From: a virus
Virus genome (UHGV): UHGV-0200595
Strand: one strand, 5' to 3'
DNA: 22,035 nt
The notes beneath the pieces are model-generated. The model was not told where the DNA came from and searched no databases. It saw only the letters and a program-made list of their open reading frames with translations. Shown one piece after another: positions 1 through 12,723 of the stretch. The stretch's first letter is position 1, and every line of letters starts with the position of its first letter. A program made the translations under genes and the position numbers.

Positions 1-36
1 CAAGAAAACGATAGCAGCCTCAATGCACCCACACTC

Positions 37-60
37 AACCCGCTTTGGCGGGTTTTTTTA
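37..60 (+). terminator. Rho-independent terminator ending an upstream gene that lies mostly outside the window
   Basis: Stem AACCCGC (37-43), loop TTTG, stem GCGGGTT (48-54), followed by a T-run through about 59. Confidence 0.8.
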
Positions 61-93
61 TACCCAATCACTTGATTTGAGCTGAAAAATTGA

Positions 94-113
94 TACTGTA
101 TATACATACAGTA
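94..113. promoter_or_regulatory. LexA (SOS) box
   Basis: TACTGTATATACATACAGTA is a 20-nt palindrome. It differs at one position from the E. coli consensus TACTG(TA)5CAGTA. TTGATT (73-78) and TTGATA (90-95) -35-like hexamers lie nearby. The exact promoter was not resolved. Confidence 0.8.
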
Positions 114-318
114 TTCGGCGAGATATATAAGCGTGTAAAAACCTTTCGTTAACCAGAACAGATACTAAGTGATTAAAAAATACCCATAAATATGAACGTA
201 AATGCATCAAATTTACATACAGCGCGAATTAAATGATTACACTCGTTATATTTCCTCCCGCAACAAAAATTGCGTATAACCGTGTATTTTCATTTTCCCT
301 TAGTAGCAAGGAGGTATT

Positions 319-531
319 ATGAAAAATTTTCAGGGAACCATTAACCGCAAGTATGTGGTCATTCGTCGGGATGATATGTCGGTTGTGGCGGAAATGGATT
401 ATTTCCCGGATACCGAGAGAGCTATTTGGATACGTAGCGGAAGAACGCTGAATATTCGCCCGCTTAAGCCAGATGAGCGGGTTGTTTCTCCCACAGTTCT
501 CCGTGAAATGGTTTGCCAGTTTATTGGGTAA
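319..531 (+). CDS. Hypothetical 70-aa protein, the first rightward ORF after the LexA box
   Basis: Strong SD AAGGAGG (308-314) lies 4 nt before the ATG. The sequence looks soluble and protein-like. No family recognised. Confidence 0.65.
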   Translation: MKNFQGTINRKYVVIRRDDMSVVAEMDYFPDTERAIWIRSGRTLNIRPLKPDERVVSPTVLREMVCQFIG

Positions 532-533
532 AC

Positions 534-555
534 TTGAAGCCGTTTAAGGCTTCAA
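534..555 (+). terminator. Hairpin after the 70-aa ORF, a possible weak terminator
   Basis: 8-bp stem TTGAAGCC/GGCTTCAA with a 6-nt loop. It is followed by TAATAATAT, which is A/T-rich but not a clean T-run. Confidence 0.3.
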
Positions 556-618
556 TAATAATATCCCTGCATGCCTGAACAACATGCAACCTGATAACGA
601 TGCGTCACTGAGGAAACT

Positions 619-1218
619 ATGGCGCATCTACAACTAGTCAAACAAACCTCTTCAGGATTACTGCTCCCGGCAACGCCGGAAAGTGGCGATTTCCTGCAAC
701 AAATTAAAATTGGTGAGTGGATACACGCTGACTTCAAGCGTGTGCGTAATTACGCATTCCATAAGCGATTTTTCAAACTTCTACAGCTTGGTTTCGATTA
801 CTGGACGCCAACAGGTGGCGTTATCACTCCGCGTGAGAGGAAGCTGGTTTCTGGCTTTGTTGATTTCTTGTGTGAGTCAGTAGGCCGGGAACATACCCCG
901 GCACTGAGCGATGCAGCAGAGCAGTATCTGCACGAAATCGCCACCAGGAGAACCGGGGACGTTGCTCTGCTCAAATCTTTCGATGCTTTCCGTGAATGGG
1001 TAACCGTTCAGGCTGGTTTTTTCCTGGAGATTGTCTACCCGGACGGCAGCCGCGGGCGCAGGGCTAAATCCATCTCTTTTGCGAATATGGACGAAGGCGA
1101 GTTTCAGCAGGTTTATAAAGCCGTACTCAACGTACTGTGGAATTGGATCCTGTTCCGAAAATTTTCTTCTCCGGAAGAAGTTGAGAACGTCGCCGCGCAG
1201 CTTCTGGAGTTCGCATGA
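619..1218 (+). CDS. nin-region protein, DUF1367 (YdfU-like) family
   Basis: 199-aa ORF with SD GAGGA upstream. The sequence recalls lambdoid DUF1367/YdfU proteins. The stop overlaps the next start (ATGA). Confidence 0.75.
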   Translation: MAHLQLVKQTSSGLLLPATPESGDFLQQIKIGEWIHADFKRVRNYAFHKRFFKLLQLGFDYWTPTGGVITPRERKLVSGFVDFLCESVGREHTPALSDAAEQYLHEIATRRTGDVALLKSFDAFREWVTVQAGFFLEIVYPDGSRGRRAKSISFANMDEGEFQQVYKAVLNVLWNWILFRKFSSPEEVENVAAQLLEFA

Positions 1219-1508
1219 TGGCTGATTTACGAAAAGCATCACGCGGCCTGATGTGTACAGTCAGGATCCCCGGTTACTGCAACCATAATCCCGAAACATC
1301 TGTGCTTGCGCACTACCGGATGGCCGGCACTTGCGGGACCGCAACAAAACCACACGATATGCAGGCGGCGATCGCCTGTTGTGCCTGCCATGACCTGATC
1401 GACGGTCGGGTAAAAACCGATGACTACAGCAAAGAAGAACTTCGCCTGATGCATGCAGAAGGCGTTTTCCGTACGCAAGAAATCTGGAGAGAGAAAGGGC
1501 TGATATGA
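1215..1508 (+). CDS. YbcO/DUF1364-like Cys/His-rich putative nuclease
   Basis: 97 aa with Cys/His clusters (CTVRIPGYCNH...CCACHDLIDGR). The size and position before Q match DLP12 YbcO. ATGA overlaps at both ends. Confidence 0.7.
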   Translation: MMADLRKASRGLMCTVRIPGYCNHNPETSVLAHYRMAGTCGTATKPHDMQAAIACCACHDLIDGRVKTDDYSKEELRLMHAEGVFRTQEIWREKGLI

Positions 1509-2047
1509 TTTACCCAACCAATACAGGAAAACCAGGTGAACACCTTCGCCTTAGCACACTCGAGAGCGTATGGATTCAGGGCAAGTTGCGTATGTGGGGC
1601 CGTTGGTCGTACATCGGCAGCGGTAAACCTGGCAACATGTTTAACCAGTTGCTGACGTCTAAAAAACTGACCAAAACAGCGATAAATGAGGCGCTCCGCA
1701 GAATGAAGCGGGCAGGGCTGGATAAACCGGAACTTGAGGCATTTTTGCGGGATATGATTAACGGTAAACAAAAAAGCTGGCTTGCACACTGTTCGGATGC
1801 GGAGGCGTTAAAAATCGACGGGGTTATCGGTGAAGTCCTGGCGGATCATCCCAGATTGTTCAATATCCTGAGTCAGCGTTATGTGGGGCGGGGGATGAGT
1901 AAGCGCATGATGGCCGAGAGGTTAAATGAAGTACATCCAGAATGGTGCTTTAGCACATGCGAAAAGCGGATCGCTAATTGGTTAGCTGTCGCAGAATATA
2001 TGCTTTATATCCCCATGCATGAATCATTTGCTCAAAAAATGACTTGA
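1505..2047 (+). CDS. Late-gene antitermination protein Q (non-lambda Q family)
   Basis: 180 aa with an LRMWGRW motif reminiscent of Q-family antiterminators. It is the last gene before a promoter plus terminator pair and the lysis and structural genes. Confidence 0.75.
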   Translation: MIYPTNTGKPGEHLRLSTLESVWIQGKLRMWGRWSYIGSGKPGNMFNQLLTSKKLTKTAINEALRRMKRAGLDKPELEAFLRDMINGKQKSWLAHCSDAEALKIDGVIGEVLADHPRLFNILSQRYVGRGMSKRMMAERLNEVHPEWCFSTCEKRIANWLAVAEYMLYIPMHESFAQKMT

Positions 2048-2722: not shown

Positions 2723-3154
2723 TCATTGCTTCAGTTCATGGCGGGCAGCTTCAGCGATGAAGTGACTGCGGTCGCGATAAACGTTGCTGGCCTTTACTGC
2801 ATTATCGATCCGCTTAATCAGCGTATCAGGTAATGAGATGTTTATGCGCTGAGGCTTGCCTTCGAATTCTGACAAATCAACGTCGACCATAACCCAGCTG
2901 TCGAAGTCTTTATATTCTGGATTAACGGAATAAACCAGATAGCCAGCATCCTTGATATCTTCGACAGCAACATCGTTATTCTGAACCAGGTCTTCGACAA
3001 CCATCAGGATAGCTTCTTTCACCATTGGGGCAATCTGGTCCTGAGTATCAGCAGCGGAGAAACATCCGTAATCGTAAGCTGAAAACGCGGGAACGATCAT
3101 ACCGTAGGCGGTCTTTTCATCTTTCGGCGTCTCGACGCCCACTGAGAAGAACAT
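2723..3154 (-). CDS. hicB: HicB-family antitoxin with a C-terminal ribbon-helix-helix DNA-binding domain
   Basis: 143 aa. It has a HicB-like N-terminal fold and a C-terminal RINISLPDTLIKRID...RSHFIAEAARHEL RHH motif. SD GGAGG lies 5 nt upstream. It sits immediately downstream of hicA. Confidence 0.85.
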   Translation of the reverse strand: MFFSVGVETPKDEKTAYGMIVPAFSAYDYGCFSAADTQDQIAPMVKEAILMVVEDLVQNNDVAVEDIKDAGYLVYSVNPEYKDFDSWVMVDVDLSEFEGKPQRINISLPDTLIKRIDNAVKASNVYRDRSHFIAEAARHELKQ

Positions 3155-3178
3155 ATCAACCTCCAGAGAGGGCGGGGA

Positions 3179-3361
3179 TTAGAACCCCGCCAGTTTTTTA
3201 ATGGATTTGACAGTGCCGAGAGGTAAGTCCTTTTTTGGATGCGGAACCGGAAAAGTTTTTCCGGTTATCGGTGACCACCATATCTGGTGGCTTCCTCCGT
3301 TATGCCTTTTGAGTTCACATCCGGCAGCAGTCAATTCCTTTATCAGGTCAGTAGATTTCAT
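3179..3361 (-). CDS. hicA: HicA-family mRNA-interferase toxin
   Basis: 60 aa from the internal ATG (MKSTDLIKELTAAGCELKRHNGGSHQIWW...HPKKDLPLGTVKSIKKLAGF), with the typical HicA length and GSH motif. SD GGAGGA lies 3 nt upstream. The track ORF's 12-aa N-terminal extension is unlikely to be real. Confidence 0.88.
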   Translation of the reverse strand: MKSTDLIKELTAAGCELKRHNGGSHQIWWSPITGKTFPVPHPKKDLPLGTVKSIKKLAGF

Positions 3362-3383
3362 GTTTCCTCCTGGCCTGAAAACT

Positions 3384-3435
3384 ATTATACACACCAATAC
3401 ACACGAAGCAATATTTTGTGTGTATTCGTGTGTAA
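3384..3435 (-). promoter_or_regulatory. hicAB promoter with a four-site palindromic operator
   Basis: On the minus strand, -10 TATAAT (3389-3384) and -35 TTGCTT (3411-3406) are separated by 16 nt. ATACACAC occurs at 3387-3394 and 3397-3404. It is mirrored by GTGTGTAT at 3418-3425 and GTGTGTAA at 3428-3435, symmetric about 3411. Confidence 0.65.
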
Positions 3436-4883: not shown

Positions 4884-5139
4884 TCACCCGCGAAGGCAGA
4901 ATATTTTACTGAAAAATGACGTTGGCCAGCGCGTCCGGAAAGCAAAAAATTCTGCGGAGTGCGGTGTTTTTGAATAATAAATGCTGATTTCGATTTTCAC
5001 GATTCAGATATCGATCACTGGTATTACAGCAGCCCTTCAATGAGGGGCTGCGATAATGCCAAAGTTCGCCATCGGCACCCGCCGCGCACCCTGCGCACTG
5101 GTCGATGGTGGACTTTTCAAATTTCAACATCGAGGCTGT

Positions 5140-5931
5140 ATGTGCGAAGAATTAACAATCGTCTATCGCCCGTTAAATGAACTGATACCGTGTGCAAGAA
5201 ATGCCAGAACCCACAGTGATGAGCAGGTGGCGCAATTGGTCGCCAGTATTAAGGAATTTGGCTGGACAAATCCGGTGCTGGTTGATGAAAACGGAGAGAT
5301 TATTGCCGGACATGGTCGTGTCATGGCCGCAGAATCGCTTGGCATGGATATCGTTCCGGTAATTGTCCTTACGAATCTGACAGACGATCAGAAACGGGCG
5401 TATCGTCTGGCAGATAACCGGCTGCCGATGAATGCAGGCTGGGATGTGGAACTGCTGAGGCTGGAAATTGCAGATTTGCTGGATGCTGATTTCGATATTT
5501 CTCTGACAGGGTTTAACCAGGCAGAGATTGACGAACTGCTGACTGAAATTACAACAGACACAGAAAGCGGCGATGAGCCGTACACAGCAAAAATTGATAC
5601 GCCTGTTTATGAGCCGTCAGGAGAAAAGCCTGATATCGGAGAATTGTACGACGACGAGAAGACTCAGGAACTGGCAGAGCGTATCCGCAAAGCCGGGCTT
5701 GACCCAGAGATCGAAAAATTCCTCCTGAGTGCAGCAGAGCGGCACACCATTTTCAATTTCAGCAAAATTGCTGATTACTATGCTCACGCTCCGGCAGAGA
5801 TACAGGCGCTGTTCGAAGAATCCGCACTGGTGATCATTGATTTTCAGCAAGCCATTGAACACGGTTTTGTCCGTATGACTCAGCGCATGGTGGAGATCAT
5901 GCATGGAGATGAGGAGGAGGAATATGCGTGA
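5140..5931 (+). CDS. ParB/Srx-like N-terminal-domain protein with an unassigned C-terminal domain
   Basis: YRPLNELIPCARNARTHSDEQVAQLVASIKEFGWTNPVLVD..IIAGHGRVMAA (GHGR at 5308-5319) and RAYRLADNRL..AGWD..LL match the ParB-like module seen N-terminal to phage DNA methylases. The preferred start is the ATG at 5140 (GAGG upstream); the track start at 5056 is possible. Confidence 0.8.
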   Translation: MCEELTIVYRPLNELIPCARNARTHSDEQVAQLVASIKEFGWTNPVLVDENGEIIAGHGRVMAAESLGMDIVPVIVLTNLTDDQKRAYRLADNRLPMNAGWDVELLRLEIADLLDADFDISLTGFNQAEIDELLTEITTDTESGDEPYTAKIDTPVYEPSGEKPDIGELYDDEKTQELAERIRKAGLDPEIEKFLLSAAERHTIFNFSKIADYYAHAPAEIQALFEESALVIIDFQQAIEHGFVRMTQRMVEIMHGDEEEEYA

Positions 5932-6775
5932 TGATTTTTGCGCATTTATTCTGACCCACGGACGGCCGGATAATGTGCTGACATACCGCACTCTGCGCCG
6001 GGCGGGTTACACCGGAAAAATATATATCGTTGTTGATGACGAGGATAAGACCCGGCAGCAGTATATTCAGGCGTTTGGCGATCAGGTGCTGGTATTTTCT
6101 AAAACGGATATTGCCAGCCGCTTCGATGAAGCAGACAACTTTGGCGACCGTCGCTCAATCTTTTATGCCAGGAATGCCTGTCCGGACCTGGCAAAAAAGG
6201 TTGGGTGTAAATATTACATCCAGCTCGATGACGACTATCACGAGTTCCAGTTTCGGGTGGATCGCAACTATGACCAGGCCTATTTCCCGATAAGGAAACT
6301 GGATGAGATCCTTTCTGAAATGCTGGCGTATTACGAATCAATACCTGCGCTTTCCATCGCTATGGCGCAGGGTGGTGATTTTCTTGGTGACAATGGCGGC
6401 CACGCCGCATGGGTGAAACGGAAGGCGATGAACAGTTTTATCTGTTCCGTTGAGCGACCGTTTTCATTCGTGGGGCGCATTAACGAGGACGTGAACACAT
6501 ACACGAACCTCGGACGGTGCGGCGAACTGTTTATGACAGTGGGGGCTGTGCAGTTGGGCCAGAAGCAGACGCAGAAAAACAGCGGCGGCATGACTGAACT
6601 GTATCTGGATTCTGGTACCTACGTTAAAAGTTTTTACTCCGTCATGTATGCGCCGTCGTGCGTGAAAATCGCACTGATGGGCGCCAGCCATAAACGCATT
6701 CACCATCAGGTCACCTGGAACAACGCTGCAGTAAAAATCCTTCACGAAAAATATAGGAAGAAGACACCCTGCTAA
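5924..6775 (+). CDS. GT-A fold (GT2-like) glycosyltransferase-like protein
   Basis: N-terminal beta-strand and loop FILTHGRPD, DxD-type motif QLDDDY (6227-6235), and an ED motif GRINEDVN (6485-6490) about 85 aa later, as in GT2 enzymes. The start ATG at 5924 follows GGAGGAGG and overlaps the ParB-like stop by 8 nt. An ATG at 5903 is an alternative start. Confidence 0.6.
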   Translation: MRDDFCAFILTHGRPDNVLTYRTLRRAGYTGKIYIVVDDEDKTRQQYIQAFGDQVLVFSKTDIASRFDEADNFGDRRSIFYARNACPDLAKKVGCKYYIQLDDDYHEFQFRVDRNYDQAYFPIRKLDEILSEMLAYYESIPALSIAMAQGGDFLGDNGGHAAWVKRKAMNSFICSVERPFSFVGRINEDVNTYTNLGRCGELFMTVGAVQLGQKQTQKNSGGMTELYLDSGTYVKSFYSVMYAPSCVKIALMGASHKRIHHQVTWNNAAVKILHEKYRKKTPC

Positions 6776-6792
6776 CAACAAGGGGGTGATAA

Positions 6793-7044
6793 GTGATTCC
6801 GTATCAAAAAGTTGAGTCTCTGGCTGCGTGCCGTATGACACCGCAGCAGATAGCCGATGCTCTCGATATCGACCTGGATGAGCTGAAACAGGATCGGGAA
6901 TGCCTCGGAAAATTTTATAAGTACATCAGAAAAGGAAGAGCCAAAGGCGAAGCCGAACTGAGGGCTGCGCTGTTCAAGCGTGCCCGGAAAGGCGATGCCT
7001 TTGCCCTGCGCGAATTACTCAAGGTGGATAAAAATCAGGACTAA
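6793..7044 (+). CDS. Small HTH-like protein preceding the terminase genes
   Basis: 83 aa from a GTG start; an internal Met at MTPQQIADAL is an alternative. The helix-turn-helix-like MTPQQIADALDID is followed by a basic helical tail. Position is immediately 5' of terS. Confidence 0.55.
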   Translation: MIPYQKVESLAACRMTPQQIADALDIDLDELKQDRECLGKFYKYIRKGRAKGEAELRAALFKRARKGDAFALRELLKVDKNQD

Positions 7045-9540: not shown

Positions 9541-11739
9541 ATGGCAGAAAAAAAGATGACTGAATGGCATCGCAGAGTGCTACGCAACTTCGATAAAGCC
9601 TGGTCAGCAACGCAGGATATGCGAAAACAAATTGTCACGGCGCAGCGATTTGTCAGGGTATCCGGTGCCCAGTGGGAGGGCAGTACTAATGCGGGATATT
9701 CTTTTGATGAGGGGCGATTTGAGCATTACCCGCGCTTTGAATTGAATAAAATTGCTCGTGAGTGTGATCGCATCATTGGCGAGTATCGCCAGAACCGTAT
9801 CAGCGTTAAATTCAGGCCGAAGGATGATAAAGCGTCAGAAGCATTGGCTGAGAAGATGAACGGTAAGTTCCGCGCCGATTATCAGGAAACATCCGGTGGA
9901 GAGGCGTGTGATAACGCGTTTGATGATGCTGTAACGGGGGGATTTGGCTGCTTCCGTATGTGTGCTGACTACGAAGATGAGATGGACCCGAGTAATGAGC
10001 AGCGACGCATCAGCCTTCTCCCTGTTTACGACCCAGCGACATGCGTCTTCTTCGATCAGGACAGCAAGCAATATGACCGCTCTGATGCTATGTGGGCTAT
10101 GGAAATGTTCTCCATGACGCCCAAAGCGTTCGAGGCTGAGTATCCTGATTCCATCGCTGCGAGTCTCTCACGTGACGACACTGGCACACAATATGACTGG
10201 TCGACACCAGATGCTATTTATGTTGGGCGCTATTACGAAGTTCGTATTGAGAAGGTCAGGCTCACCGCATGGCGCAACACGGTTAGTGGAGAAACGGCAA
10301 TCTATGATGAGGAGCAAATCAAAGACATTGTCGATGAGTTAACTGATGGTGCTTTTGAAATAATTGGTGAGCGCACGGTGAAGAAACGCCGTGTCTATTG
10401 CGGCCTACTGTCAGGTGCTGAATGGCTGGATGAACCCAAGCGTATCCCAGGTGAGCATATCCCACTTATTCCGGTCTATGGTCGCCGCTCATTTGTTGAT
10501 AATCAGGAGCGCATTGAAGGTCATGCAGCAAAAGCGATGGATGCGCAACGTCTTGAGAACCTGATGGTTTCCATGATTGCAGATAACGCTACCCAGGCTG
10601 GCGGCGATGGTATCCCTATCGTGGATGTTGATTTTATTCCTGGTCCTTTAATGAATCACTGGGCAGAGAGGAATAAGAACAGGCCAGCTGTTCTACCCAT
10701 GACCAGTAAGAAGGACAAAAACGGAGCAATTATTTCACAGGCTCAGGTAGCCGGATGGACTCCTCCAACTCAGATGCCTCCTGCTCTTGCCGGACTGTTG
10801 CAGTACACCGGGACAGCTATTCAGCAAATTACAGGTGCGTCGCAGCTTGAGAACATGCCGAGCAACGTTGCTACCGATACCGTTGATAGCATCTTTAACC
10901 GGATGGACACGCAGTCCTATATCTACATGGACAACATGGCTAAATCCATGCGCCGCGCTGGCGTCGTGTGGCTTTCTATGGCGCGTGAAGTCTATGGCAG
11001 CGATACGCCGATGCGTATCGTTAATGAGGACGGCAGCGATGATGTGGCACTGATGACTGGCGAAGTGGTTGACCGCCAGACAGGGCAGGTTATTGCGCTA
11101 AATGACCTGTCGCATGGCAACTATGAAGTTACTGTCGATGTCGGTCAGTCATTCGCCACTCGCCGTGATGCGACAGTTAAGTCGTTACTTTCCATGCTGT
11201 CACTTATTCCGCCAGGAACACCGAAACATGACCTGGTGTCTTCCATGATTCTCGACAACATGGATGGCGAGGGTATTGATGACCTGAAAGAGTTCAACCG
11301 AAATCAGTTGCTTCTGTCTGGCGTTATTAAGCCACGAACACCCGAAGAGCAGCAAATGGTTGAACAAGCCAGACAGCAACAGGCAAGCCAGCCTGACCCG
11401 GCAATGTTGGCTGCACAAGGTCAGTTCCTTGCAGGACAAGCGGAATTGCAAAGAGCGCAGAACGAACAGGCAGCCATTCAGGTTAAAGCATTCCAGGCTC
11501 AAACAGATGCACAGGTTGCAGCGGCAAACGTTGTGAAAATCCTTGCATCTGCCGATAGCCAGCAGAAGTCTGATATCCGTGAGGCTCTGAAACTCCTCGG
11601 ACAGTTCCAGCAACAGCAAGGAGACAATGCCCGTGCTGATGCAGAGCTTGTTTTGAAGGGGCAGGCACAAGGGCATGCACAGCGCATGGATATCAGCAGC
11701 ATCCTGCAAAAAACCACGCATCAACAACCACAGCAGTAA
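9541..11739 (+). CDS. Portal protein (P22 gp1-like) with a Gln-rich C-terminal barrel
   Basis: Blocks matching recalled P22 gp1: KKRRVY, GEHIPLIPVYG, PEEQQ..., DPAMLAAQGQFLAGQAELQRAQNEQ, ELVLKGQAQGHAQRMDI. The protein is 732 aa. Confidence 0.95.
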   Translation: MAEKKMTEWHRRVLRNFDKAWSATQDMRKQIVTAQRFVRVSGAQWEGSTNAGYSFDEGRFEHYPRFELNKIARECDRIIGEYRQNRISVKFRPKDDKASEALAEKMNGKFRADYQETSGGEACDNAFDDAVTGGFGCFRMCADYEDEMDPSNEQRRISLLPVYDPATCVFFDQDSKQYDRSDAMWAMEMFSMTPKAFEAEYPDSIAASLSRDDTGTQYDWSTPDAIYVGRYYEVRIEKVRLTAWRNTVSGETAIYDEEQIKDIVDELTDGAFEIIGERTVKKRRVYCGLLSGAEWLDEPKRIPGEHIPLIPVYGRRSFVDNQERIEGHAAKAMDAQRLENLMVSMIADNATQAGGDGIPIVDVDFIPGPLMNHWAERNKNRPAVLPMTSKKDKNGAIISQAQVAGWTPPTQMPPALAGLLQYTGTAIQQITGASQLENMPSNVATDTVDSIFNRMDTQSYIYMDNMAKSMRRAGVVWLSMAREVYGSDTPMRIVNEDGSDDVALMTGEVVDRQTGQVIALNDLSHGNYEVTVDVGQSFATRRDATVKSLLSMLSLIPPGTPKHDLVSSMILDNMDGEGIDDLKEFNRNQLLLSGVIKPRTPEEQQMVEQARQQQASQPDPAMLAAQGQFLAGQAELQRAQNEQAAIQVKAFQAQTDAQVAAANVVKILASADSQQKSDIREALKLLGQFQQQQGDNARADAELVLKGQAQGHAQRMDISSILQKTTHQQPQQ

Positions 11740-11829
11740 TTAACCCATAACGTGCAATGGCTGTCTTTATGAGGCCGGGCACCCTATTGCCTTCCGATGG
11801 GCTGAACATCGAGTAAACAGGGGTAACAA

Positions 11830-12723
11830 ATGGACCAGATGGCAGAAAACACACCAGAAGTTGAAATCGAAACCGACACGTCAGAGCAGATCCCTGACGA
11901 TGTTGAACTGGCTGAAGAAGTCGAAACAGAAGATGACGGTGAGTCCTCCGGCGATGATGCAGAGGAAGTTGCTGAATCTGATGACGACGAATCAGAGCAG
12001 GAATTCTACTTTGGTGACGAAAAGCTGGATTCGCCAACCAGCGAGGATGGGGCAGGGCATGGACTGGTAAAACATCTGCGCAGGACGATTAAAGAGAAAG
12101 ACCGTGAGCTAAAAGAGCTAATGCGTCAGTCTCAGAAACCCGTCGAGCAGCAGCCGGTAATCACTCAACCACCGCGAATGCCAAAAATGGATGATGAGGA
12201 CATCGGTTTCGATGAAGAACTCTACCAGCAACGCATGGCTAAGTGGGCAGAGGACAACGGCAGATACCAGCAACAGGAGATGGCCCGTAAGCAGCAGGAA
12301 CAGGCGTTTCAGGCTGCCTATCAGGACCGGGTATCTAAATATCAGCAACGAGTAAAGAGCCTCAAAGTTCCCGGATATCAGGAAGCTGAACAGGCCGTGC
12401 TTGATGAAATACCTATCGAGACACAAAACGCGATCCTGTTTGAGTCAGAAAAGCCGGAAATCGTTGTTCTGGCACTTGGTCGCAACGCTGAACTGCGCAA
12501 GCAACTGGCTGAAGCCACCAACCCCGTAGCAATTGGTCGTCTGCTGGAACGTATCGAATCGAAAGCCAGAATCATGCCAAAAGCAAAAACCGCAGCCGCC
12601 ACAACCCCGACAGTCAAGGGGAGCAACGGCGCACTTATTAATAACCTCGACAAACTGAAAGCCAGGGCGCGAGAAACGGGGGACTGGACGCCGTATTTCG
12701 CCGCTAAAAAGGCAAAAAAATAA
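11830..12723 (+). CDS. Scaffolding protein (P22 gp8-like)
   Basis: 297 aa with an acidic N-terminus, a helical and charged middle, and a basic C-terminal helix-turn-helix-like tail (GDWTPYFAAKKAKK). It lies between the portal and coat genes. Confidence 0.8.
   Translation: MDQMAENTPEVEIETDTSEQIPDDVELAEEVETEDDGESSGDDAEEVAESDDDESEQEFYFGDEKLDSPTSEDGAGHGLVKHLRRTIKEKDRELKELMRQSQKPVEQQPVITQPPRMPKMDDEDIGFDEELYQQRMAKWAEDNGRYQQQEMARKQQEQAFQAAYQDRVSKYQQRVKSLKVPGYQEAEQAVLDEIPIETQNAILFESEKPEIVVLALGRNAELRKQLAEATNPVAIGRLLERIESKARIMPKAKTAAATTPTVKGSNGALINNLDKLKARARETGDWTPYFAAKKAKK

Follow-up and report, generated by a model that had tools for sequence, protein, structure and literature searches.

The 22,035-nucleotide (nt) stretch of the viral genome UHGV-0200595 analyzed here (hereafter, the window) apparently derives from a lambdoid Citrobacter prophage with an early region of the Gifsy/Rac/Qin type and a P22-type virion. 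Near its beginning, a LexA (SOS) box precedes a gene for a 70-amino-acid (aa) protein and, as judged from comparison with related prophages, this region is probably an SOS-input module in which LexA controls an antirepressor of the GfoA family that would induce the prophage by way of a short non-cleavable repressor. The binding of LexA, the point where transcription starts, how far the transcript extends, and what the protein acts on and does are all predictions from the DNA sequence. The mechanism has been known since 2011, and what is new here is, most likely, a Citrobacter example of the Gifsy type that lacks dinI and carries a leader.

The box, TACTGTATATACATACAGTA, differs at 1 position from the LexA consensus, TACTGTATATATATACAGTA, and is the only site across the 22 kb window that matches this consensus with 3 or fewer mismatches. 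None of 100 shuffled versions of the window (dinucleotide-preserving) contains such a match, and a chance match is inadequate to explain the box; the window has two instances of the looser motif CTGT-N8-ACAG. A terminator scan places the box just past a terminator-like hairpin with a 7-bp stem and a T-run (positions 37-54), which is present in all relatives and also in Gifsy-2 and Qin. Each LexA box of the Gifsy prophages is likewise preceded by a terminator-like palindrome (Lemire 2011, PMC3121763). The first-pass annotation of this DNA had described a near-consensus SOS box directly after a terminator, and both elements were found where it had placed them, the box being the sole site of its kind in the window.

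We fetched and compared 15 loci that encode close relatives of the 70-aa protein (9 protein clusters, comprising all the close relatives found). A LexA box lies 213-226 nt 5' of the start of the open reading frame (ORF) in 12 of these loci; there is essentially no change in its arms, and the bulk of the variation falls at the central position 11, which can be A, T, G or C. A hok/sok toxin-antitoxin locus is located directly upstream in a metagenome scaffold identical to nearly the entire compared region and in a C. freundii genome (L002 2088-2413; 50-aa Hok; Rfam sok, 93 bits), and the hairpin at 37-54 is the 3' end of the hok mRNA in the near-identical relatives. The box is linked to the ORF rather than to hok because the box is kept, at the same fixed distance from the ORF, in loci without an upstream hok (L012-L015).

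The ORF is a real gene, given that, among the relatives, codon positions 1 and 2 (92-94% identity) are more conserved than position 3 (86-87%). It is intact in all relatives, begins with ATG, GTG or TTG at one aligned position, and is preceded by a strong Shine-Dalgarno (SD) sequence, the AGGAGG part of which is invariant; in these respects, the first-pass reading of the gene stands. The same reading had presented the ORF as an orphan of no recognizable family, which has to be revised: the protein belongs to a family of enterobacterial prophages, GfoA/phrog_1813, that is unannotated in databases. Its phrog_1813 match carries a function-less label, and a profile search yielded at least 352 clusters from Citrobacter, Enterobacter, Klebsiella, Salmonella, Leclercia and Hafnia, all the names given being 'hypothetical protein'. 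Pfam and NCBIfam contain no model for the 70-aa protein, the GfoA-like proteins, GftA or Rem. The AlphaFold2 (AF2) model, with four strands and a C-terminal helix, is confident but has no significant match among PDB and BFVD structures, and a profile search of PDB sequences with the 70-aa family found nothing. A terminator-like hairpin inside the ORF (458-482; a 9-bp stem followed by TGTTTCTCCC) is present in L012 and missing in L005 and L009; given this patchy distribution, it was rejected as a terminator and probably arises incidentally from the coding sequence.

The case for an antirepressor comes from homology and synteny with GfoA. In the Gifsy prophages, the LexA box comes after a terminator-like palindrome and is followed by dinI, then by one of the small antirepressor genes gftA, gfoA or gfhA, and then by an irsA homologue (Lemire, Figueroa-Bossi and Bossi 2011, PMC3121763), and the three antirepressor genes have GUG or other non-canonical starts (PMC3121763). 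A tblastn search of phage genomes detected distant homologues of the 70-aa protein, with 35-46% identity. The homologue directly follows dinI in SPN3UB, Klebsiella phage ST846-OXA48phi9.1 and Citrobacter phage Chris1, with a NinB/DUF1367 gene directly 3' of it in SPN3UB; by synteny, the place between dinI and DUF1367/NinB is taken by a homologue in these phages as well as in SEN34, mEp237 and Gifsy-2. The primer used for irsA deletion (PMC3121763) matches the start of STM1020, a DUF1367 gene, and the order of elements in the window (terminator, LexA-box promoter, predicted antirepressor, the DUF1367 homologue of irsA, Q) is that of Gifsy.

The Gifsy antirepressor proteins or their orthologues were located through the primers printed in PMC3121763. 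The gftA primer matches STM1020.1n of Gifsy-2 (L020 11464-11685); the gfoA 5' primer site was found in SEN34 and in 50 prophages from IMG/VR; for the 3' primer, the region is matched in SEN34 (38/40) and mEp237, with no match for the exact gfoA 3' primer in IMG/VR. The GfoA orthologues thus located are 82 aa long; translation starts at TTG in SEN34 and in the IMG/VR loci and at GTG in mEp237, and the SEN34 and mEp237 proteins share 94% identity. Nearly every one of the IMG/VR loci has a LexA box ahead of dinI, at 388-392 nt 5' of the gfoA orthologue.

In BLASTP comparisons, the 70-aa protein is 31-36% identical to the GfoA orthologues of SEN34 and mEp237 (E-values of 2e-6 to 3e-6) and matches SPN3UB gp59 and the proteins of Chris1 and ZC-S1 at 3e-11 to 2e-19; the GfoA orthologues themselves match SPN3UB gp59 and Chris1 at 1e-14 to 1e-16, and ZC-S1 at about 4e-6. 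A natural intermediate, P0009, combines an N-terminal half of the window type with a C-terminal half of the SPN3UB type, and alignments of the two subfamilies match each other in hhalign (E = 6.6e-6, probability 85%, 57 columns). The GfoA orthologues also match phrog_1813 at 3e-11, with phrog_340 as the top family. By these sequence comparisons, the 70-aa protein belongs to the family that includes GfoA and GfhA, which serve Gifsy-1 and Gifsy-3 as LexA-controlled antirepressors.

Repressors of the corresponding type are encoded in related prophages. L023, a C. freundii prophage with an identical ORF, encodes a 138-aa repressor, 46% identical to GtgR, beside ydaS/ydaT and dicB-like genes, and L005, with an 86%-identical ORF, encodes a 135-aa repressor, 68% identical to GtgR; in both, the identity to GtgR is full-length, there is no Ala-Gly site, and a relationship to DicA is apparent as well. 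Short non-cleavable repressors are the class that is inactivated by antirepressors (PMC3121763, PMC10448788). Together with the homology to the GfoA orthologues and the shared gene slot, these Gifsy-type repressors favor the earlier suggestion that the window carries a candidate LexA-gated small antirepressor.

The box also appears to coincide with a promoter. A TTGATT hexamer located 16 nt 5' of the box is the candidate -35 element, assigned by the geometry common to Gifsy-type operons, and the left arm of the box, TACTGT, is the candidate -10 hexamer. Anchored on the box, the window family has TTGAnn (TTGATT, TTGATC or TTGAAC)-16 nt-TACTGT, and the dinI-type operons of Gifsy-2, SPN3UB, SEN34, mEp237 and Chris1 have TTGAAT or TTGATC-17 nt-TACTGT. 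With the left arm of the box in the -10 place, bound LexA would occlude RNA polymerase. An alternative, recA-like candidate promoter (TTGATA at 90-95, a 16-nt spacer, and TATTCG at 112-117) would likewise be covered by the box. As far as can be read from the DNA, the window thus shows the LexA-box promoter after a terminator-like palindrome by which GfoA/GfhA modules are recognized. In Gifsy-2, replacement of the segment by PBAD abolished mitomycin induction (PMC3121763), and exposure to nalidixic acid raises expression of the Gifsy dinI operons 14-23-fold (PMC8072944).

Under the scenario we favor, LexA would occupy the box in an undamaged cell, over the -10/start region of the promoter, and keep the unit off, with the terminator shielding it from upstream transcription. 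Upon DNA damage, self-cleavage of LexA would allow the promoter to fire, and the transcript, with its 205-nt leader, would be translated into the 70-aa protein and would probably run on towards DUF1367, YbcO and Q. The antirepressor would bind a short repressor of the GtgR/GfoR/DicA type and displace it from its operators, resulting in prophage induction.

Table 1 Features of the predicted antirepressor module and adjacent genes in the window
Feature	Position	Strand	Basis
Intrinsic terminator, predicted to close the upstream unit and insulate the SOS unit	37..61	+	Stem/T-run scan; conservation
Candidate -35 element TTGATT	72..77	+	16 nt 5' of the box; geometry common to Gifsy-type operons
LexA (SOS) box TACTGTATATACATACAGTA	94..113	.	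Above chance; 12/15 loci; Gifsy-type position relative to -35
AT-rich leader, presumed 5' untranslated region (UTR), 205 nt	114..318	+	dinI slot; conserved blocks CGTTATATT (244-252) and ribosome-binding region
Shine-Dalgarno sequence AAGGAGG	308..314	+	Sequence reading; AGGAGG invariant in relatives
70-aa gene, predicted GfoA-family antirepressor	319..531	+	phrog_1813, 5.7e-18; similarity to GfoA orthologues; AF2 predicted local distance difference test (pLDDT) score 86.5
Structured intergenic region: hairpins 534-555, 568-588 and 599-628; promoter-like 534-562	534..628	+	Fold z = -6.2
DUF1367 gene (homologue of Gifsy irsA/STM1020)	619..1218	+	Pfam DUF1367, 1.3e-94; 57% identical to Gifsy-2 STM1020
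Q-type late antiterminator	1505..2047	+	Pfam DUF1133, Phage_antitermQ; phrog_753

Several observations weigh against this scenario. The consensus promoter scan flags neither of the two candidate promoter readings, and the hexamers are weak. The direct similarity to GfoA is modest, 31-36% identity being spread across 47-57 residues, and the similarity of the 70-aa protein to GftA (phrog_4847; BLASTP, and hhalign E = 0.26) and to Rem (hhalign E = 0.057) is not significant; the kinship of GftA and Rem to GfoA rests on the literature (PMC3121763, PMC10448788). The immunity region of this prophage lies outside the window, its cognate short repressor being predicted from the relatives, and GtgR is insensitive to both GfoA and GfhA (Lemire 2011, PMC3121763), so that the pairing of a GfoA-like protein with a GtgR-like repressor cannot be assumed. 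The operon differs from Gifsy in that, in the window and its close relatives, no dinI separates the box from the ORF. Furthermore, L009-L011 (Salmonella enterica subsp. houtenae and metagenome contigs; 4683-5012 in L009) have the terminator, the leader and the ORF (76% aa identity) and lack a 55-bp block equivalent to window positions 68-122, with the candidate promoter, including the -35 element, and the box, which is a clean loss of the predicted SOS operator and promoter. With the ORF retained in these loci although the promoter and box are gone, expression of the ORF is not always LexA-dependent. Absence of the box from relatives that retain the ORF, which the first-pass annotation had listed as an argument against SOS control, is accordingly real but confined to a minority, with 12 of the 15 loci keeping the box. 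Finally, promoter-like sites in the leaders of relatives could allow LexA-independent expression.

The leader was correctly noted at first pass to be AT-rich and about 200 nt long (32.5% GC at window positions 101-300 vs 45-55% in the flanking genes). In Gifsy-type operons, dinI begins approximately 19 nt past the box, and the window family has 193-206 nt of non-coding sequence there instead. Decay of dinI was considered as the origin of the leader and rejected: tblastn of six DinI proteins against ten leaders gave short, inconsistent matches with E >= 0.01. In a blastn comparison of the leader with dinI-type operons, the terminator and the box alone were found in common. Deletion of dinI left Gifsy induction unaffected (Lemire 2011, PMC3121763); dinI is typical of the antirepressor module yet not essential to the mechanism.

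The accompanying idea that the leader could be a regulatory RNA found no support. Rfam yielded no match at E <= 1, shuffled sequences reach a minimum free energy (MFE) as good as the leader's (z = +0.48), the fold of the leader alignment contains 0 pairs with compensatory changes, and the leader diverges fast (67-74% identity to relatives vs 86-87% at the third codon positions of the ORF). A modest role as a 5' UTR is conceivable. The leader of tisB is structured and is a target of the IstR-1 RNA; the leader in the window differs in that it shows neither a stable fold nor covariation, and an antisense partner was not detected. Like the window, tisB has its LexA box more than 200 nt 5' of the start codon (236 bp vs 225 nt here; PMC8072944), so there is precedent for the long distance between the box and the start.

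Some smaller elements of the leader can be discerned. The CGTTATATT block is invariant and, in relatives, forms part of a promoter-like GTGAAA-17-TATATT, the window counterpart of which, GCGAAT-17-TATATT (224-252), is weak. The leader of L012 contains a terminator-like TGCGT-AGAAA-ACGCA hairpin with a T-rich tail that is not kept in the window, and in Gifsy-2, a terminator-like hairpin separates gftA from dinI. In most relatives, the promoter-like GTGAAA-17-TATATT is accompanied by a terminator-like hairpin a short distance 5' of the ribosome-binding site. By folding, a weak hairpin is able to pair the SD and the AUG of the 70-aa gene. A conserved small ORF in the leader was rejected because a 4-nt indel breaks the sole candidate frame in relatives. 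It is conceivable, although we consider it rather improbable, that in the Citrobacter lineage of this operon dinI was lost and the leader serves as a second layer of control beyond LexA, with the protein possibly acting in trans on the repressors of other resident prophages, so that there would be cross-talk in polylysogens.

It is unlikely that the 70-aa gene is an SOS-induced accessory gene (moron), controlled by LexA but with another role, such as modulation of RecA or the SOS response in place of DinI, or action on a host target. All phrog_1813 members are named 'hypothetical' in the databases and none has a function assigned by test, there is no Pfam or NCBIfam model, the fold is without a match among solved or viral structures, and the absence of dinI implies that the slot has been remodeled, all of which would fit such a gene. 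However, the protein is homologous to the GfoA orthologues and occupies the same slot, each characterized occupant of which (GfoA, GfhA, GftA and Rem) is an antirepressor, and it has no similarity to DinI.

Even less probable is the possibility that the LexA-controlled promoter chiefly serves the downstream nin genes and Q (DUF1367, YbcO, Q) and passes the SOS signal straight on to the activation of the late genes, with the small ORF being secondary. A terminator scan from 531 to Q revealed no convincing terminator, which is compatible with this possibility, as is the presence of an irsA homologue within the same LexA-regulated operon (Lemire 2011, PMC3121763). Nevertheless, in Gifsy, non-polar irsA deletions were without effect on induction and the antirepressor alone was sufficient (PMC3121763), and the region between the ORF and DUF1367 suggests separate control, with a conserved promoter-like site and a structure that would sequester the DUF1367 start. 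The promoter-like TTGAAG-17-AATAAT at 534-562 lies right behind the stop codon of the ORF, overlapping the first of three hairpins; its equivalent in L009 and L012 is TTGAAG-17-GATAAT, and in Gifsy-2, TTGACT-18-CATAAT follows gftA. This site could supply DUF1367, YbcO and Q with a promoter of their own.

The hairpins in this intergenic region form a strong predicted fold (MFE of -33.2 kcal/mol for window positions 529-630). The second one, 568-588, with a GCAUG/CAUGC stem and a constant 9-nt loop, CCUGAACAA, recurs in Gifsy-2, SPN3UB, Chris1, SEN34 and mEp237 with compensatory changes in the stem: 4 of the 5 pairs change on both sides, pairing extends to 98% of the alignment cells, and none of 500 shuffles scores as high. 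In the third hairpin, 599-628, the DUF1367 SD is in the loop and the AUG is paired. Rfam contains no match for the 534-628 hairpins, which may be an undescribed cis-regulatory element of irsA/DUF1367 genes.

A relic, that is, a box and an ORF inherited from a Gifsy-like ancestor and no longer working, in a mosaic prophage that may use a cleavable repressor, is a quite improbable explanation. It would account for the loss of dinI and for the loss of the promoter and box in L009-L011, E. coli Qin keeps rem after hokD without a LexA box, and the window's own immunity region is out of view. Decay is, however, difficult to reconcile with box arms that are invariant beside the rapidly diverging leader, with an ORF that is intact everywhere and shows the codon-position bias described above, or with the complete-looking lysis and P22-type structural modules in the window. 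The least probable of all is that the box controls a leftward transcript, for example, one antisense to the 3' end of the hok mRNA, with the ORF being unrelated: the promoter scan does flag a minus-strand TTTACA-18-AATACT at 139-110 that overlaps the box, and hok/sok is directly upstream in near-identical contigs, but we rejected this promoter given that its -35 element (TGTAAA) is not kept in relatives, the box-ORF distance is fixed in the hok-less L012-L015, and Gifsy-type operons have the same box with a promoter pointing rightward.

Among the characterized systems, GfoA/GfhA (PMC3121763) resemble the predicted antirepressor module most directly in what can be compared: the proteins are small (82 aa in the orthologues vs 70 aa) and detectably homologous; a terminator and a promoter-overlapping LexA box come before the gene, and DUF1367/irsA after it, in the nin region upstream of Q; and non-canonical starts and an association with short non-cleavable repressors (both seen in relatives of the window) are shared by the families. 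Unlike GfoA/GfhA, the window has a 205-nt non-coding leader instead of dinI; its protein belongs to phrog_1813 rather than phrog_340, is 31-36% identical to GfoA and is without the GYRVT C-terminal tail; and the host is Citrobacter, the virion module is of the P22 type, and the activity is predicted from sequence. GftA of Gifsy-2 occupies the same slot, between dinI and STM1020, with the same LexA-box promoter geometry, and its target, GtgR, is the protein to which the repressors of the related Citrobacter prophages are 46-68% identical; unlike the window protein, GftA is in phrog_4847 and has no significant sequence similarity to it. FsoA of Fels-1 is governed by the Fels-1 repressor rather than by LexA (PMC3121763).

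Rem of the cryptic prophage Qin, the DicA antirepressor of E. coli K-12 (PMC10448788), is encoded in a comparable array of hok, terminator, small antirepressor gene, nin genes and Q. The 3' end of hok and the terminator are recognizably alike in Qin and the window family, and the immunity region is of the DicA/YdaS/YdaT type. Unlike the window, Qin has no LexA box 5' of rem, and in this, the box-less L009-L011 resemble Qin; the inducing signal for Rem was stated by the authors to be unknown (PMC10448788). Tum of coliphage 186 and AntC of N15 follow the logic proposed here for the window, being LexA-repressed antirepressors that act against a non-cleavable repressor (PMC3121763). Tum differs from the window protein in its size of 146 aa, with a fused DinI-like half (PMC3121763), and in its genomic position.

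If the predicted module functions as proposed, induction of the prophage would occur through a LexA-released antirepressor rather than through RecA-stimulated cleavage of the repressor, and could be reversible and common to co-resident prophages. The dinI-less variant would imply that dinI is dispensable in the architecture of such modules. The analysis also exposes an annotation gap, in that the GfoA/phrog_1813 family, with its at least 352 clusters in Enterobacteriaceae, is all hypothetical proteins with no Pfam or NCBIfam model or solved structure. SOS-inducing antibiotics (fluoroquinolones) could mobilize related toxin-gene prophages (LT-II-like, STb-like) or raise the expression of the toxin genes. 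Such genes are seen in several of the compared loci: L006 carries a heat-labile enterotoxin type II A/B gene pair (11417-12213; Pfam Enterotoxin_a, LT-IIB) after the lysis cassette, and in L013 (4014-4235) and L015 (1300-1521), an STb_secrete gene (heat-stable enterotoxin B-like) is located upstream of the terminator and the LexA box.

With respect to the genomic neighborhood, an identical copy of the 70-aa protein is encoded in Citrobacter freundii, and from nt 14 the window shows no difference from a metagenome scaffold (L002/L024) in the 11.2 kb compared. Nucleotides 1-13 differ from this otherwise identical scaffold, so the window's own upstream neighbor may differ. Megablast of window positions 1-620 against phages and against complete E. 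coli genomes gave no match, and in a distant blastn search against phages, the terminator alone was matched. The sole contig identical around the DUF1367 protein of the window starts 2.4 kb upstream of the window and does not reach the immunity region. A weak isrK-like Rfam match (20.7 bits, below threshold) covers the 3' end of hok and the terminator. L001, the C. freundii genome with the identical protein, has an insertion sequence (rve transposase, 5835-6946) between ydaS/ydaT and the replication region, so the prophage there may be defective.

Downstream of the ORF, the DUF1367, YbcO and Q-type antiterminator genes are followed by a methylase gene, hicAB, the lysis cassette, and the P22-type terminase and portal genes. 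The hicAB pair is on the minus strand (2723-3397), between the methylase and holin genes (HicB of 143 aa; HicA, in the identical contig, of about 60 aa). Two neighboring genes at 5056-6775, ParB_N (291 aa) and TAGT/PF20691 (about 290 aa), are located past the lysis cassette and ahead of the small terminase gene, with both Pfam labels taken from the identical contig; these may be a DNA-modification pair of the 7-deazaguanine type. The nin region of SPN3UB contains a queuine tRNA-ribosyltransferase gene.

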